Positions 14,452 through 20,642 of a stretch of DNA of 64,000 nucleotides are shown here, piece by piece. The stretch lies in NCBI GenBank assembly GCA_963747115.1, contig CAVVEB010000006.1, forward strand, positions 138,115-202,114. Reading direction: 5' to 3'. Position 1 is the first letter of the stretch. Each line of letters begins with the position of its first letter. Source of the DNA: an uncultured delta proteobacterium. GTDB taxonomy: Bacteria > Desulfobacterota > Binatia > Binatales > Binataceae. The position numbers were made by a program, and so were the translations under genes. The notes below the pieces were generated by a model that worked only from the letters and a program-made list of their open reading frames with translations, was not told the DNA's origin and ran no database searches.

Positions 14452-14757
14452 TCAAGCAATGAGGTCGCGGCCGATCCAGATCGTCGTTTGACGAATCGCG
14501 CGATTACGCAGTTCCGCGAGAGCTTGCAGGTCGGTATCGGCGCGATATCGCTCGAGCGATTGCGGGTCGGGAAAGGTGACGATGTGGACCTCGTGCGGTT
14601 GATCGGGATCTGCGCTCGCGGCGAAACCGATTCGGCGCTCGATGCGGCCGCCGTAGCGTCGCATGATCGCATCCGCCGCCGCCTCGAACTCTGCGAACTC
14701 GCGCTCCCGACAGGGGTGGATGCATAGCGCGGCAACGATAGTGAGTGGAGTCGGCAT
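14452..14757 (-). CDS. DUF1330 domain protein
   Basis: 101 aa; MPTPLTIVAALCIHP...FAEFEAAADAIMRRYGGRIERRI...HEVHIVTFPDPQSLERY fits DUF1330. The SD GAGG lies within the repeat core immediately upstream. Confidence 0.7.
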   Translation of the reverse strand: MPTPLTIVAALCIHPCREREFAEFEAAADAIMRRYGGRIERRIGFAASADPDQPHEVHIVTFPDPQSLERYRADTDLQALAELRNRAIRQTTIWIGRDLIA

Positions 14758-14865
14758 GAGAACCTCGCGGCGATGCGGAATTCAGGCAAGCCCTTCGAGT
14801 TTGATCTCTCCCGCAGCGATGCGACTCAGAGTGTCCACATAGATCACGTGCTCGGCTTCCAGCAT
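14758..14865 (-). repeat. Junction copy C: purN 3'-end remnant (27 codons plus stop) plus 33-nt core
   Basis: The minus strand reads ATG CTG GAA GCC GAG CAC... = MLEAEHVIYVDTLSRIAAGEIKLEGLA*, against the purN C-terminus VLEAEHAIYVETLGRIAAGEIKLEGLF*. The core AACCTCGCGGCGATGCGGAATTCAGGCAAGCCC is at 14761-14793. Confidence 0.85.
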
Positions 14866-16320
14866 TCACACGGTGGCCGCTTGTAGACGGCCCTCGCGTA
14901 CCGCTTTGCGCAGTTCCCGGTAGTCGCGCTCGGTCTGGTCGGCGTAGGCCACCGCGAACTTTGTCACCGCTTCATCGAAGACGCCGCTGTTGCCCAGATA
15001 GCCTGAGATCATCGAGGCGTCGCCCGAGCGCGCGTGAGCTCGCGCCAGGGTCCAACCGCACAGCTTTGCATAGGCCCGCAGCGTTTCGGAATCCATCGTT
15101 TCCATGATTACCGACAGCTTCACGTCGTGCAGTTGGCGCAAATAGAAATGCCGCCCGCCCAACATGCCTTCGGTCCAGCCCAGCATGATATCGCTGGCCG
15201 CCTGCATCAGGCGCTGACCCATGACCACGCGCTGCCCGTGATTGGAGTACACGCTTTTGCCCGCGTAGGGTTCGAGCACGGAGGCGTTGGCCTGTTTGAC
15301 CTGCAGGAACAGTGGATCGTTCGCAGCGGCCATGAACAAGGTCACCGCACAGAAGGTGCCGACGCTGCCGACGCCAACGACTTTGATTGCGATGTCGTAA
15401 AGCCGGAAACGATCGAGCAGAACTCGGTAAGGATCGGCTAGCGTGCCGCGATACATGTTCAGCGCATCCAGCACGTTGTCACGGGCTTCTTTGCTGCGGC
15501 TCCGTTGCTCGTGAAAAATCAACGGCGGATTATCCTTGATGCGTGGGGGGCTCTTGCCGTTACTCTCGACCAGTTTTGGAAAATCATGATCCAGCGAGGT
15601 CGGAGCGGTGCGCGCCTCATCCATTCGTGCGCGAAAACGCTTCTGCGCCGCGACGGGAAGCTCGGGTAGTAGCCTCTCGGCGTCGACGCGGTCGTACCAA
15701 ACCTCCATCGCGCGCAGGTCAGCGTAACGCGCCATCCAGCGCCGGTATGAGCGTGCCGCGCCGTGTGCTGCCGCCCGCGATTCGCGCTCCTTCAAACCGA
15801 TATGGCGCCCCGCTGCTACCAAACTCGCGGCGAGGCGCTTCAAATCCCACTCCCACGGGGCGGGCAGGGTCTCGTCAAAGTCGGGGATATCGAAAATCAC
15901 GTTGCGCTCGGGAGTGGCGAAAGCGCCGAAGTTCATCATGTGGCAATCGCCGCAAGCCTGGACCCGAATCCCACTTACCGGAGTGGTGGAAAGGTCCGCG
16001 GCCATCCCCGCGGCCGCGCCGCGCAGAAAGGCAAATGGCGACGTGAGCATCCGGCCATGCCGGATCGGCACCAATTCCGGAATGCGCCCCTTGTTGGAAG
16101 CTATCAGGATGTCGATAGGGTCGGGCCGGTCGCGCCGTTCTTTCCATTTGCCGTGGCTCTCACGGGGAACCTTTTCGCGCAACGCCTTGCCGGCCGCCCG
16201 GCGCTCTTGCGGCGAGAGCCGCTTGCGCTCGAAAAAGTCCTCTCCCAGCTTGCGCGCGCGGGCCGACTTGATCTGGCTGCCGGCCACCGGCCTGCCATTG
16301 GTCTCAAGTTGTGGTTCCAT
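14866..16320 (-). CDS. DUF2252 domain protein
   Basis: 484 aa. FAFLRGAAAGMAADL, VQACGDCHMMNFGAF, IFDIPDFDETLPAPWEWDLKRLAAS are characteristic DUF2252 blocks. Its stop codon directly abuts the purN remnant of copy C. Confidence 0.75.
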   Translation of the reverse strand: MEPQLETNGRPVAGSQIKSARARKLGEDFFERKRLSPQERRAAGKALREKVPRESHGKWKERRDRPDPIDILIASNKGRIPELVPIRHGRMLTSPFAFLRGAAAGMAADLSTTPVSGIRVQACGDCHMMNFGAFATPERNVIFDIPDFDETLPAPWEWDLKRLAASLVAAGRHIGLKERESRAAAHGAARSYRRWMARYADLRAMEVWYDRVDAERLLPELPVAAQKRFRARMDEARTAPTSLDHDFPKLVESNGKSPPRIKDNPPLIFHEQRSRSKEARDNVLDALNMYRGTLADPYRVLLDRFRLYDIAIKVVGVGSVGTFCAVTLFMAAANDPLFLQVKQANASVLEPYAGKSVYSNHGQRVVMGQRLMQAASDIMLGWTEGMLGGRHFYLRQLHDVKLSVIMETMDSETLRAYAKLCGWTLARAHARSGDASMISGYLGNSGVFDEAVTKFAVAYADQTERDYRELRKAVREGRLQAATV

Positions 16321-16435
16321 GGTTTATCCCACGCCGTTGAACACGGATGGCCAACGGCGTGCGATTGTGCGCCGTTGCATCGTCTCTTGGCAATCGGACC
16401 TCGGGCCAACGCGCTATGGTGTGAGTTGATGTGGG

Positions 16436-16477
16436 AACTTCGCGACGATGGGGAATTCAGGCAAGCCCTTCGAGTTC
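16436..16477 (-). repeat. Junction copy D: short core only
   Basis: AACTTCGCGACGATGGGGAATTCAGGCAAGCCC (16436-16468) plus TTCGAGTT equals the last codons of purN (..LEGLA*) plus the intergenic spacer. It is nearly identical to copy C. Confidence 0.75.
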
Positions 16478-16751
16478 AGTTCGCGCTCTGCGTCGTGATT
16501 TGGATCGAGAGCAAGTAAACGTGCGTCGCGTCGAATGTATAATAAACGGTCAGCGGGCTTAGCCGCCCCACGTCTACAGTCGGCAGGAACCAGACCGGCG
16601 GATCGTCGGTTGTTAGTGGCGAACCAATTTCAGGCTGACGGGCCAACGCCCACTCGGTCGCTTCTATAAATTCGTCCGCCGCCCTGGCTCCGCCTGTCGT
16701 CAGGTCGCGCAATTGCACCTCGAATGCATGCGTTCTGACAACGGTGCGCAA
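16476..16751 (-). CDS. Putative toxin partner of the Panacea antitoxin (family not recognised; possibly RelE/ParE-like fold)
   Basis: 91-aa ORF with a TTG start 3 nt after the stop of the upstream Panacea-domain gene, which suggests translational coupling. The pattern HAFEVQLRDL...EFIEATEWALARQPEIG...LTVYYTFDATHVYLLSI loosely resembles RelE/ParE-type toxins. Confidence 0.4.
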   Translation of the reverse strand: MRTVVRTHAFEVQLRDLTTGGARAADEFIEATEWALARQPEIGSPLTTDDPPVWFLPTVDVGRLSPLTVYYTFDATHVYLLSIQITTQSAN

Positions 16752-16754
16752 GAA

Positions 16755-17324
16755 CTACCGATGTGCGCCAGATAGCGCTTCTTTGGCGAGCTTTTGAAGC
16801 GCACGACCTTTGCGCCGTTCAGCCTCCGTTGGCTTACGGTTCCCGATCAGGATGACGGAATACGGAATCGTTTCGCCTTCCTCCGCCAATTTCCAGCCCA
16901 AAAAGAAGTGCGACTCGTCGCTGATCTGGGTCGCATTCATCTTCCAAAACCGTCCGACAACTTCTTCGACCAAATCGAGTTCTTCGCGGCGGAACTTGCT
17001 AATGTCGGCGGTCCTGATCGCAACCGGCCGGATTTGAGTGAAACGATATCTTTTCTCGTGTCGCTCAGTCAGGTCGCCCGCCCGCTTCATGGCGTCTACT
17101 ACGGGCCTTAGCCGGCGCGGAGCAGGACCCTGAGCCAATGCCTGATACTCTTGACCTGTGATCGGGGCGCCGAATCTCTGGTAGGCCAGAAAGTCGGAAT
17201 AGAAAAGCAGTTTGTTAAGTTTGACCGCGCCGAACTTTTCGTCTCTGGAAGACAGAGACGCCAAATACAGAATCAGCTCTCGGAGCTTGTCGTCGTCGGG
17301 GTGTTGTCGTGTCTTCGGAGCCAT
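16755..17324 (-). CDS. Panacea (DUF4065 / SocA-like) antitoxin-domain protein
   Basis: 189 aa. GAVKLNKLLFYSDFLAYQRFGAPITGQEYQALAQGPAPRRL matches the DUF4065 signature (KL.KLLyY.d......g.pi....y.A...GPv). Confidence 0.65.
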   Translation of the reverse strand: MAPKTRQHPDDDKLRELILYLASLSSRDEKFGAVKLNKLLFYSDFLAYQRFGAPITGQEYQALAQGPAPRRLRPVVDAMKRAGDLTERHEKRYRFTQIRPVAIRTADISKFRREELDLVEEVVGRFWKMNATQISDESHFFLGWKLAEEGETIPYSVILIGNRKPTEAERRKGRALQKLAKEALSGAHR

Positions 17325-17407
17325 GACTGTAGGGCGCGACTGGGCGCCTTCCCGATGATATCAACACGATAACGGAGCGTCGATCCCCTCCAAAAGAGGA
17401 CCCCGCC

Positions 17408-17500
17408 CTAACGGACGTTAGGGCGCCGCCTCGAACTCCTATCGAACTCGGGCGCGCTTCTGGGATATATGAACAGAGCGACGACGATAGTGACTGGCAT
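17408..17500 (-). pseudogene. 5' remnant of a second DUF1330 gene
   Basis: My translation MPVTIVVALFIYPRSAPEFDRSSRRRPNVR* aligns with the intact DUF1330 N-terminus MPTPLTIVAALCIHPCREREFAEFEAA. DNA homology includes GAGTTCGAGGCGGCG. Core copy E precedes it, with the same GAGG SD. Confidence 0.55.
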
Positions 17501-17510
17501 TGGCTTAGAT

Positions 17511-17543
17511 AACCTCGCAGCGACGCGGAGTTCAGGCGACCCC
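17511..17543 (-). repeat. Junction copy E: 33-nt core
   Basis: AACCTCGCAGCGACGCGGAGTTCAGGCGACCCC differs from copy C at a handful of positions. It abuts the stop codon of the DUF3800 gene. Confidence 0.7.
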
Positions 17544-18280
17544 TAACTCCAATACCGCTTCGCGTACTGCGCCCGAAACGCAGATAATTCCTTCGGCCCA
17601 AGGAATATAGATTTGCCGCGAACCGTTCTAAGCTCGTCCCACACGCGCGCGGACCAGCGGCGCTTATGTAGAAGCTGTTCCTCGTAATCGCGCCGAGTGT
17701 GCCACGCAAACAGATCGGCGGCCTGTAAGGGTAGATTCTCCTTGTCATTCTCAAAGCGCGGTCGGCTAACGAGCATGTCCGACAGTTTTTTTGGAAGATG
17801 CGAACGCATGCCGTCGTAACTCTCGCTGATCTGTTTCTCTCGCGAGAGCACGCCCTGATCAAAGATGAGTTCGATCTGCTCTGGCGGCTGTTTTACGGAT
17901 GCCGAATGAAGCAACCATGTAACGATATGGCAATAGGCTAGCGCGTCGGGATTTTTCATTATCCCTTTCGGCTGTCGCAGAACTTTCTTGAACGCGCGAG
18001 AGTCAATCGCTACTGAGAGCGCGATAAGTTCGTATTTACGAATAACGGCGATCAGCTCGCACAGTTTTGCGTCTCGCTCGGCTTCTGTCCAACCAGCGAA
18101 TTCGTACTTTAGCGCGTTTGCTGCTATGCCCTTTAGGTATGGCAATTCAGGCGACTTTCGCATGACTGCCTGATACTCCCCAGCGCAGTCCTTAATTCTA
18201 TCCGCGAAACCGACGTATCCGGCCAAAACAAAAACCGGATCGAGCCCTCGTCCACTCTCGTCGAACCACGCCTGTAACAT
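17543..18280 (-). CDS. DUF3800 domain protein
   Basis: 245 aa. The N-terminal AWFDESGRGLDPVFVLAGYVG matches the DUF3800 D-E-S-G start motif. Confidence 0.6.
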   Translation of the reverse strand: MLQAWFDESGRGLDPVFVLAGYVGFADRIKDCAGEYQAVMRKSPELPYLKGIAANALKYEFAGWTEAERDAKLCELIAVIRKYELIALSVAIDSRAFKKVLRQPKGIMKNPDALAYCHIVTWLLHSASVKQPPEQIELIFDQGVLSREKQISESYDGMRSHLPKKLSDMLVSRPRFENDKENLPLQAADLFAWHTRRDYEEQLLHKRRWSARVWDELRTVRGKSIFLGPKELSAFRAQYAKRYWS

Positions 18281-18308: not shown

Positions 18309-18432
18309 TTATAGCCCTTCCAGTTTGATCTCTCCCGACGCGATGCGGCTGAGAGTCTCCACATAGATCGCGTGCTCGGCTTCCAGCACCCGCGCACCTA
18401 GACTCTCGACGGTGTCGCCGGGCCGCACCGGA
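18309..18432 (-). repeat. Junction copy B: purN 3'-end remnant (about 39 codons)
   Basis: 18315-18432 aligns with 20044-20160 of intact purN with roughly nine mismatches over about 117 nt, counted by eye. It encodes ...RPGDTVETLGARVLEAEHAIYVETLSRIASGEIKLEGL*. Confidence 0.9.
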
Positions 18433-18533: not shown

Positions 18534-18851
18534 TTAGGGCAGGAACTCCCTAGCAAGACGCCCCACCATTTGCTCAATGTCCGCCCTTTCGAAGACACCG
18601 CTCAAAGGAATCGTTGGCTTCCCGTTGTCATACCACATGAGCCAGTAACACTCGCGGTTATCCTGCTTATCGAACGCGTGTTCGAGCCAAAGTGAGGAAG
18701 AGCCGTCCGCGATGAGGGCGTTGTCGAATACGCTCCCACCTGTTGCTGACGTGCGGTGCGGTTTTCCTTTGTTGATGTTGGTTCGAAAGCGATGGTTTTC
18801 GCACGAATAGTCGAGTCTGTTTCCATTCTGAACGATCCTAAAGTCCTTCAT
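18534..18851 (-). CDS. Hypothetical protein (cassette cargo)
   Basis: 105-aa ORF in a lower-GC segment. No recognisable family. Confidence 0.3.
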   Translation of the reverse strand: MKDFRIVQNGNRLDYSCENHRFRTNINKGKPHRTSATGGSVFDNALIADGSSSLWLEHAFDKQDNRECYWLMWYDNGKPTIPLSGVFERADIEQMVGRLAREFLP

Positions 18852-18967
18852 GGTGTCACCTCAAAAACATCGTCGGGATTCTTCGACAGTCTGTGCCGCA
18901 GACGGCGTGGCTCTGAATCACAGCAAAAGACTGTAGGCCCATCAAAATTCAACCAGTGCCGAAACTC

Positions 18968-19939
18968 TCACCCACATTTCGCCAATGTCGGCCAAACTTC
19001 GAAAACTTCCGGACCGGGCGACAAGGCATTTACCAAGTAGACTTTCGTGAATGGGATCGGGGTTTTTGTTGCCAAAAACCGCGCAGCTTCCCGAGCCATA
19101 CTCTCGAACGTTTCGTACGCTAGGTCATGGTACGGCGAATTATAAAGCACGGCGTCGTCGTAGTAGATGAGGAGCCTTATGTCGCTGCTCTCGGACTTTC
19201 CATAGTGGCAGATTTTCTTGTCGAATATGTTCTTAAGAGCCCGTACGGCGTTTTCTGAGGAATAGGCGCCGCCGTCGGCCGGAAATTTGGTCCAACTCGG
19301 TGCCTGAGCCTCGCGCAAAATATTCACTCCTTGCGCTTCAGCCCAAACTTTGACGTCTTCGTGGAATTGTCGAAGGAGACCCTGCGAATCGGGATCGGAC
19401 CAAGCTCGTTCAATAGCCTCACCGATTGCCCTCTCTTGATACGAATCGCGAGGTAGGAACAGGGCACTCCTGACGTACTTTTGAAGAGTGGGGTATTCAG
19501 CGAACTCGGTTAGTGGCAAGTAGCAATTACCGTGTTCGAACAGTTCACTACAGTTTCGATCGATTTTTGCGGTCAAGCGCCCAAATTCATTCTTGAAGAC
19601 GTCCATATCTTTATCGCGAAACCGTACCTCTTTGACCTGGATCATCACGTAAGCAAAGTTGCTCGGTTCCGGTATTGAGGAGGCCGAGAACACCCTTTGA
19701 AGCGCGCTCCGAAGCTTCTCTTTTCGCTTTGCGGTCGCCGCTTGTAACGGCTCAAGCCATTCGCCTAGCTGAAATCCTATCTCGCCTCCGTTCTTAAGCT
19801 TCGCCAGGACATCCGCCGGCTCTTTGGGCGCAGGTCCGTAAGCCTCCATCCGATCTCCGAAGGAGGGATATGCATCGATGAAGCATCTGAAAACGGCGAG
19901 TTCGTGCTGTTTCTGATTCGGATCCGAGTCTGTTCGCAT
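18968..19939 (-). CDS. Hypothetical protein (cassette cargo)
   Basis: 323-aa ORF in a lower-GC segment. No recognisable family. The N-terminal ...EPADVLAKLKNGGEIGFQLGEW is weakly reminiscent of a PD-(D/E)xK nuclease core; this is speculative. Confidence 0.35.
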   Translation of the reverse strand: MRTDSDPNQKQHELAVFRCFIDAYPSFGDRMEAYGPAPKEPADVLAKLKNGGEIGFQLGEWLEPLQAATAKRKEKLRSALQRVFSASSIPEPSNFAYVMIQVKEVRFRDKDMDVFKNEFGRLTAKIDRNCSELFEHGNCYLPLTEFAEYPTLQKYVRSALFLPRDSYQERAIGEAIERAWSDPDSQGLLRQFHEDVKVWAEAQGVNILREAQAPSWTKFPADGGAYSSENAVRALKNIFDKKICHYGKSESSDIRLLIYYDDAVLYNSPYHDLAYETFESMAREAARFLATKTPIPFTKVYLVNALSPGPEVFEVWPTLAKCG

Positions 19940-20033: not shown

Positions 20034-20642
20034 TTAAAAAAGGCCTTCCAGCTTGATCTCTCCCGCCGCGATGCGGCCAAGAGTCTCCACGTAGATCGCG
20101 TGCTCGGCTTCCAGCACTCGCGCACCTAAAGTCTCGACGGTGTCGCCGGGCCGCACCGGAACTTTTTTTTGCGCCAGAATCTTGCCGCGATCGTATTCCG
20201 CATCTGCCAGATGAACGGTGACACCGTCTTCCTTGTCGCCGGATTCCAGCACCGCCGCATGCACGCGCTCTCCATACATTCCTTTGCCGCCGAATTTCGG
20301 CAACAGCGCGGGATGGATGTTGAGCACGCGGCCGCGATAACGCGCGAGCGTTTTCGGCCCCAGCTTTTTCATGTAGCCGGCGAGGACGACGACATTCACC
20401 TGATACTTTTCGAGCGTCTCGAGGATCGCTTCATCGAGGCGACCCGGATCGGGATGAACGTGCGCGCTCAGATGGAACGCGGGAACCCGCGCCGCCATCG
20501 CGCGATCGAGAACCATCGCATCTGAGTTGTTGCTGATGACCACGCGCGGTTCGGCGTCGAGCCTGCCCTCGCGGCAGGCGTCGAGAATCGCCTGCACGTT
20601 GCTGCCGCCGTGCGAGGCCATAAATCCGAGCCGCAGTTTCAT
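20034..20642 (-). CDS. purN: Phosphoribosylglycinamide formyltransferase
   Basis: MKLRLGFMASHGGSNVQAILDA..., VVLAGYMKKL, LNIHPALLPKFGGKGMYG, GVTVHLADAEYDRGKILAQ are classical PurN blocks. I place the start at the ATG at 20642. Confidence 0.9.
   Translation of the reverse strand: MKLRLGFMASHGGSNVQAILDACREGRLDAEPRVVISNNSDAMVLDRAMAARVPAFHLSAHVHPDPGRLDEAILETLEKYQVNVVVLAGYMKKLGPKTLARYRGRVLNIHPALLPKFGGKGMYGERVHAAVLESGDKEDGVTVHLADAEYDRGKILAQKKVPVRPGDTVETLGARVLEAEHAIYVETLGRIAAGEIKLEGLF

Follow-up and report, generated by a model that had tools for sequence, protein, structure and literature searches.

Organisation of the locus

The 64,000-nt stretch of DNA analysed here (the window) comes from contig CAVVEB010000006.1 of an uncultured delta proteobacterium of the Binataceae (assembly GCA_963747115.1, positions 138,115 to 202,114). 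It carries, at 16476-17324, a two-gene module that encodes a Panacea-domain protein, PanA, and a small partner protein, here called PanT. It is close to certain that these genes represent a conserved, mobile module that combines PanA with a partner of the RelE/ParE fold. The two genes and their junction are arranged as follows.

16755 to 17324, minus strand: panA, encoding a 189-aa Panacea/DUF4065 protein; TAG stop codon at 16757-16755
16476 to 16751, minus strand: the panT-like gene (panT below), encoding 91 aa; TTG start codon at 16751-16749, TGA stop codon at 16478-16476
16749 to 16757, minus strand: coupling junction TAG-TTC-TTG (panA stop, 3 nt, panT start), as read from the sequence

Both open reading frames (ORFs) lie on the minus strand at the positions given in a first-pass annotation of this DNA, and the motifs quoted there were found in the translations. 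The tight coupling that it described, with a TTG start 3 nt past the antitoxin stop, is also present. The two genes share one reading frame across the junction, where no clear Shine-Dalgarno sequence could be read for the panT start. The same-frame 'TAG + 3 nt + TTG/GTG' junction is kept in the close clade, in at least nine close loci.

The assembly's own call for the small gene (P0001) is 80 aa long and uses an internal start, so that the first β-strand, which is conserved, is lost. The start at 16751 (TTG) is favoured over this call because conservation in the family alignment begins at residue 2. Homologues of the same length (n = 30), 402 profile clusters and a confident structure model show that the 91-aa ORF is a real gene and not a chance frame.

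The Panacea protein

The claim that the 189-aa protein carries a Panacea/DUF4065 domain stood or fell with a profile match, and this match is unambiguous: the full model (1-113) of PF13274 SocA_Panacea aligns with PanA residues 36-145 (E 1.2e-15; 58.8 bits against a cut-off of 25.7). The protein also matches phrog_1281. Homologues of PanA in the database number 1841 at E ≤ 1e-10, and some of their records are named 'Panacea domain-containing protein' (Candidatus Binataceae/Binatus). panA is the only Panacea gene in the 3.17-Mb, 74%-complete assembly.

PanA is basic (isoelectric point, pI, 9.8; net charge +9), as is its subfamily (median pI 9.9, net +10). Beyond the Pfam model lies a tail of about 45 residues (146-189) that is strongly conserved: I153, P154, Y155, L159 and A180 are found at 100%, R163, P165 and L176 at 98%, E169 at 96%, and T166 and L184 at 94%. 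Two short helices are predicted in the tail (167-175 and 177-185); the corresponding stretch in the PanA of Salmonella phage vB_SemP_Emek is shorter by about 18 residues.

The partner is a separate sequence family

The 91-aa protein has no match among the Pfam, NCBIfam, PADLOC and PHROGs models, even at E ≤ 1, which bears out the earlier view that it lies outside every named sequence family. A word-indexed search found 30 homologues, mostly of 91 aa and all 'hypothetical', and a profile search of 1.84 billion representatives found 402 clusters at E ≤ 1e-3, 89 of them at E ≤ 1e-10, all unnamed. Sequence searches of the PDB with profiles A1 and A2 returned coiled-coil noise only, and tblastn against a phage collection gave no match for PanT and four weak matches for PanA.

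The family has a clear signature: R2, F10, R-A-D26-E-F, E33-W34 and L36-x-R38-x-P40-x-x-G43 in its first half, followed by V-W54, Y-Y71-T-F73-D and V78-x-L-L-S-I83. Its members come almost entirely from metagenomes and metagenome-assembled genomes and are unnamed; therefore, surveys based on RefSeq have probably missed them.

In a 1568-aa protein (P0090), 13 separate stretches match positions 9-64 of the PanT profile. Repeats of the helical hairpin may make up this protein, or the matches may be an artefact of low complexity.

The two genes are conserved as a pair

Loci were collected from contig look-ups, a scan of species-representative genomes, a metagenome scan and 151 genomes of the same class. 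Among the loci with enough upstream DNA, panA lies directly upstream of the small gene in 38 of 39; the sole exception, L041, is a decayed panT remnant without panA. Paired loci span at least four phyla (Binatia, Acidobacteriota, Omnitrophota and Planctomycetota sources), and the distance between the genes ranges from a gap of 3 nt to overlaps of 4-47 nt. Members that are only 30-40% identical (from Omnitrophica, Planctomycetia and two unlabelled contigs) are still paired, with overlaps of 4-47 nt and unrelated neighbours. The co-occurrence check named in the first-pass annotation gives the same result in reverse: all four genomes of the class with this PanA carry PanT (4/4). Conservation as a gene pair, which had been put forward as a test of the proposal, is thus found.

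In each of the contexts examined the pair has different neighbours, which places it outside any longer conserved operon; a 51-aa ORF follows it in L001 and L002 only. Presence is patchy, at 4 of the 151 genomes of the class.

Some copies are decayed. Frameshifts in panT beside an intact panA occur in at least two lineages (L003-L005 and L013), and both genes are damaged in L006. Some of these decayed copies may be assembly errors. Candidate fusions of the two proteins were rejected. The 302-aa open frame in G021 owes its length to an upstream extension only, and the TAG stop is present, while the longer 'homologues' P0205, P0118 and P0035 are artefacts of frameshift or deletion; in P0035, an internal deletion joins PanA residues ~83-113 to PanT residues 31-91.

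Two of the contexts deserve mention. In the Omnitrophica loci L018/L019 (1-2770), the pair lies two genes past a terminase large subunit and is followed by an HTH_17 gene and a PLD-like gene, which suggests prophage carriage. In L003 (4348-6743), the pair lies within a small toxin-antitoxin (TA) island that also holds a fused MNT/HepT-like gene and a HicB/HicA pair.

Predicted fold of the partner

The 91-aa protein was modelled with AlphaFold2 from a 22-sequence alignment. The model has a mean predicted local distance difference test score (pLDDT) of 88.4 and a predicted template modelling score (pTM) of 0.78, and its elements follow the order β1-α1-α2-β2-β3-β4 (strands at 3-6, 54-57, 67-73 and 77-85; helices at 8-19 and 25-38). 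The top Foldseek matches of this model in the PDB are almost all toxins of the RelE/ParE superfamily, with template modelling (TM) scores of 0.6-0.76 and probabilities of ~1.0. They include ParE2, PfiT, Mycobacterium tuberculosis RelE1, HP0892, ParE, HigB2, Thermus thermophilus RelE and YoeB, as well as Escherichia coli RelE, YafQ and the RelE-like domain of Cami1. The E-values are modest (2e-3 to 1e-1), as is usual for a fold of 90 residues. A Foldseek search of a viral library returned unnamed proteins only.

Weak bridges to the classical family exist at the level of sequence. PF05016 (ParE_toxin) is weakly matched by 8 of 128 family representatives (best E 8e-4), while the 91-aa protein itself does not reach the threshold of this model. 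This genome has no PF05016 gene; the proteins used for comparison were taken from related genomes. An hhalign comparison with 14 such true PF05016 proteins gave a probability of 19% and a pairwise E of 1.2e-3, and paired topologically equivalent segments, namely the 'L-x-x-x-P-x-x-G' end of helix 2, β2, β3 and β4.

On the predicted model, the partner belongs to a new sequence family that has the well-known RelE/ParE toxin fold. The loose RelE/ParE-like pattern noticed in the first-pass annotation is upheld by the predicted fold and by the weak PF05016 bridges. The suggestion of a new class of PanT toxin, in turn, does not hold, since the predicted fold is the classical RelE/ParE one and such Panacea partners are already catalogued. 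A match to a well-known toxin family, named earlier as an outcome that would speak against novelty, is found in spirit, at the level of the fold, and is absent at the level of sequence profiles.

Charge polarity and the missing motif

PanT is acidic (pI 4.7, net -5). The same is true of its family, in which the median pI is 4.7 and 95% of members lie below 7. The true PF05016 proteins from related genomes, by comparison, have a median pI of 9.9. These proteins carry an invariant His and an Arg/Tyr/Trp motif after β4, which is absent from the PanT family alignment; the end of the PanT family after β4 consists of 6-8 unconserved, Glu-rich residues. The ParE-like 'H-A-x-R-x-W' C-terminus of A4 members is likewise absent from the family, and neither a basic protein nor the region of the RelE R81/Y87 type ('HRREVY'), both expected of RelE-type toxins, is found there. 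What is new in this system is the sequence family, its acidity, the missing catalytic residues and the inverted polarity of the pair.

These features bear on whether PanT is a conventional RelE-type mRNA endonuclease or ParE-type gyrase poison that has diverged past profile detection. The highest TM scores of the model are to minimal RelE proteins (9g12_B, 0.70/0.76; 4fxe_E, 0.69/0.76), ParE2 and PfiT give the best E-values in Foldseek, and relatives give the weak PF05016 matches described above. However, no His, Arg, Lys or Tyr is conserved at the site of the RelE/ParE C-terminal motif, and a net charge of -5, set against the PF05016 median pI of 9.9, is a poor fit to binding of rRNA and mRNA in the ribosomal A site. 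A conventional activity of either kind is therefore improbable.

Model of a possible PanA-PanT complex

The shared reading frame allowed the pair to be modelled as a 282-aa read-through protein (PanA-Q-F-PanT), translated through the TAG codon. The alignment for this fusion was built in blocks, with 7 paired read-throughs, 74 PanA-only rows and 48 PanT-only rows. The model has a pLDDT of 92.1 and a pTM of 0.87; the PanA tail helices reach a pLDDT of ~94-96 and only the junction is disordered. A pTM of ~0.6-0.65 should be expected if the two domains lacked confident packing. Since the value is 0.87 for a chain of 189 + 91 residues, the PanA and PanT parts appear to be confidently placed relative to each other. 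At the interface, the basic PanA tail would meet helix 2 of PanT, which is acidic.

Covariation between the two proteins (mutual information with average product correction, 27 distinct pairs) gave a signal dominated by phylogeny. No solved Panacea structure turned up when the fusion model was searched with Foldseek; the matches were weak and winged-helix/PadR-like.

Function of the pair

It is fairly likely, though by no means assured, that panA and panT form a TA pair in which PanT is a growth inhibitor held by direct binding of PanA. This reading is supported by the design of the operon, the fold, the confident fusion model and the decay, which affects mostly panT while panA stays intact.

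In such a pair, panA and panT would be expressed from one transcript. The TTG start, the lack of a Shine-Dalgarno sequence and the position 3 nt past the panA stop suggest that panT is translated by re-initiation, so that PanT would be scarcer than PanA. Basic PanA would then bind acidic PanT directly and keep it inactive, in keeping with type II logic, probably through contact of the conserved positive C-terminal helices of PanA with PanT's helix 2, which is acidic and conserved (R-A-D-E-F-x-E-x-x-E-W). Release of PanT from PanA would lead to a growth stop. PanT would be expected to act by stoichiometric binding of a host protein, in a ParE-like logic, and not by RelE-type ribosome-dependent cutting of mRNA, because it is acidic and its C-terminal His/Arg/Tyr motif is missing.

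Several observations weigh against a toxin function. PanT matches no toxin profile, and its hhalign probability to true ParE_toxin members is low, as given above. The charge polarity of the pair is the reverse of that in classical type II pairs and in the PanA/T1 pair of phage Emek. In the fusion model the tether is artificial, and placement is read from pLDDT and pTM alone. PanA is more conserved than PanT over the same loci (49% versus 31% in L022), which is unusual if PanT is the selected effector, and one locus (L008) may hold a broken panA next to an intact panT. Lastly, eight predicted PanTs were non-toxic in E. coli in the survey of Kurata et al. 2022 (PMC8832971).

Part of this evidence would fit a real module of PanA and a partner in which the RelE/ParE-fold protein is inert and serves as a binding subunit, either a sensor or adaptor or a mimic that docks on a basic protein. 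The Panacea protein would then be the functionally dominant, slow-evolving component, and the module might take part in conditional phage defence or regulation. The acidity of 95% of the family, the absence of the RelE/ParE C-terminal motif, the higher conservation of PanA and the one member in a prophage-like context are all compatible with this, as are the published tests in which several predicted PanTs were non-toxic and the sensor role proposed for the Panacea domain (Ernits et al. 2023, PMC10440598). However, the layout, with the first gene in excess and the second weakly initiated, is the classical toxin-limiting design; the decayed copies are mostly broken in the small gene first; and every solved relative of the fold that was found is a toxin or a toxin-like domain. 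An inert partner is, on this evidence, unlikely.

The polarity and the L008 locus also raise the question of whether the roles could be inverted, so that the effector, harmful or DNA-binding, would be the basic Panacea protein, and its neutraliser the small acidic one. The polarity matches the usual 'basic toxin, acidic antitoxin', three PanAs showed toxicity of their own in E. coli (Kurata et al. 2022, PMC8832971), and L008 would be a locus in which panA is broken and its partner intact. Yet the upstream, better-translated gene is normally the antitoxin, and a neutraliser with a TTG start, no Shine-Dalgarno sequence and translation by re-initiation would be under-produced. In addition, every validated Panacea protein is an antitoxin (PMC8832971, PMC10440598), and panA is intact in most of the decayed loci. 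Such an inversion is very improbable.

A tentative view, itself rather doubtful, is that acidic RelE/ParE-fold proteins without catalytic residues, found together with a basic Panacea protein that bears a tail, are a distinct functional branch of the superfamily, neither mRNases nor gyrase poisons. Their action would be directed against a basic protein of the host or of a phage, through stoichiometric binding or mimicry, with the Panacea sensor deciding their release; a rewired version would make PanA the effector, regulated by the small protein.

Comparison with known systems

PanAT systems were defined by Kurata et al. 2022 (PMC8832971), who validated nine pairs. Three of the features by which they are recognised are found here: a Panacea domain above threshold, an adjacent and conserved pair, and no longer conserved operon. 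PanA antitoxins bind their toxins directly, sometimes via C-terminal helices (PMC8832971, PMC10440598), and the Panacea domain neutralises either directly or via attached elements, for example two C-terminal helices (Phd-C; Ernits et al. 2023, PMC10440598).

The closest entries in Dataset S1 of Kurata et al. 2022 (PMC8832971) are clusters T14 and T28, whose partners are RelE/ParE/YoeB/HigB-2-like by CDD/HHpred and which are marked 'notest'. The present family was set beside them by description only. As in these clusters, a small RelE/ParE-fold partner follows a Panacea antitoxin that has no additional N-terminal domain, with a gap of a few bases or a short overlap, and the pair is conserved across species. 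The differences lie in the sources (uncultured Binatia, Acidobacteriota, Omnitrophota and Planctomycetota), in the acidity and in the missing catalytic residues.

The PanA-Doc pair of Corynebacterium doosanense (PMC10440598), in which the two Phd-C helices attached to Panacea bring about 'linear' neutralisation, resembles the present one in having C-terminal helices beyond the Panacea domain, conserved in this system, which here are a possible neutralising element, and differs in the fold of the toxin, which is Fic/Doc there and RelE/ParE here. A neutralising role of the PanA tail in this system is suggested by its conservation, its charge and the confident fusion model.

With RelBE/ParDE systems (PF05016), the pair shares the toxin fold, the antitoxin gene in first position, the translational coupling and, presumably, direct neutralisation via C-terminal helices. 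The antitoxin there is a ribbon-helix-helix or Phd/YefM protein, whereas here it is the globular Panacea protein; the toxin is basic there and acidic here; and the conserved C-terminal motif of the H-x-x-R/HRREVY type is missing here.

The largest PanT cluster of Kurata et al., T1 ('mRNase'), also has an unannotated partner downstream of a stand-alone Panacea gene, close to it or overlapping. Membership of the present family in T1 was rejected, as hhalign gave a probability of 0.1% against orf161 of Salmonella phage vB_SemP_Emek. In that phage (L047, 14764-15637), orf149 and orf161 make up a PanA/T1 pair with a 62-nt overlap and are annotated as hypothetical only. The partner there is a protein of 161 aa with a pI of 9.9 and its PanA has a pI of 4.6, a polarity opposite to that of the pair described here. 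The basic orf161 protein ends in a RelE/YafQ-like '...FFVIWLDREFNLYKH' segment.

In SocAB-type (type VI) systems, the Panacea protein is a ClpXP adaptor that brings about the degradation of a SocB-type toxin. The partner here has a predicted RelE/ParE fold and is not SocB.

Upstream DNA, borders and mobility

A consensus scan and inspection of the DNA upstream of panA gave two candidate regulatory sites.

17355 to 17383, minus strand: promoter-like site with -35 TCGACG, a 17-nt spacer and an extended -10 TG-n-TATCAT, 30 nt upstream of the panA ATG
17404 to 17425, no strand assigned: perfect palindrome CGCCCTAACG-tc-CGTTAGGGCG with 10-nt arms, about 20 nt upstream of the -35; a candidate operator or insulator

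A module of the form GGGATCGAA-N17-TTGATATNAT recurs upstream of panA in L010, L025, L027 and L024, in unrelated contexts. Three other independent loci have a palindrome of 5-4-5 form, CTAAY-N4-RTTAG, at 60-150 nt upstream of panA; about 0.02 matches are estimated to be expected by chance in these upstream stretches.

L010, 2353 to 2366 (representing the L010/L006/L065 group): CTAAY-N4-RTTAG
L027, 1277 to 1290: CTAAY-N4-RTTAG
L031, 1430 to 1443: CTAAY-N4-RTTAG

The palindrome may serve as an operator, as an insulator or as a site of recombination. Within the TA pair proposed here, the candidate palindrome upstream of the promoter would be a likely site of autoregulation.

The module is bordered on both sides by repeats, and further modules lie beyond them.

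16423 to 16476, no strand assigned: downstream border, an 85% copy of the purN-end/DUF1330-start junction (direct-repeat family D2) that ends exactly at the panT stop
17443 to 17551, no strand assigned: upstream border, decayed 63-71% copies of the purN-end/DUF1330-start junction (direct-repeat families D2 and D3) that overlap the DUF3800 stop
17543 to 18280, minus strand: gene of the neighbouring cassette, encoding a DUF3800 protein (PF12686, E 6.6e-10)
18534 to 19939: next cassette, two ORFs with no family match, GC content 0.53

Repeats of the 3' end of purN and of the purN/DUF1330 junction, progressively decayed, occur at 14694-14908, 16423-16476, 17443-17551, 18313-18432 and 20041-20160. 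They separate four cassettes: DUF2252, panAT, DUF3800 and the low-GC module of two ORFs. No integrase gene is visible around the repeat-bounded cassettes in the window. The description of the pair as a self-contained cassette of a purN array agrees with this arrangement, in which junction repeats of the purN end bracket the two genes. The stretch is a self-contained, horizontally mobile PanAT-type cassette of ~1.0 kb with its own putative promoter; mobility is indicated by the patchy distribution (4/151) together with the flanking repeats.

Significance

The RelE/ParE-fold partners of Panacea, an antitoxin domain known as 'hyperpromiscuous', have so far been listed and never studied. The cassette described here defines a sizeable unannotated family of ~400 representative clusters, which stem mostly from uncultured phyla of soil and sediment and are apparently dedicated to Panacea. 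This family merits a profile of its own, and its start codon should be corrected where genomes are annotated.

Two rules of thumb for type II systems do not hold for the family, namely that the toxin is basic and the antitoxin acidic, and that catalytic residues are conserved. If PanT is not toxic, it would be a warning against annotating such pairs as TA systems from the fold alone. If PanT is toxic, it would be a compact case of the RelE/ParE scaffold being re-used for a different target, and one in which the tail of the Panacea protein may be the neutralising element.

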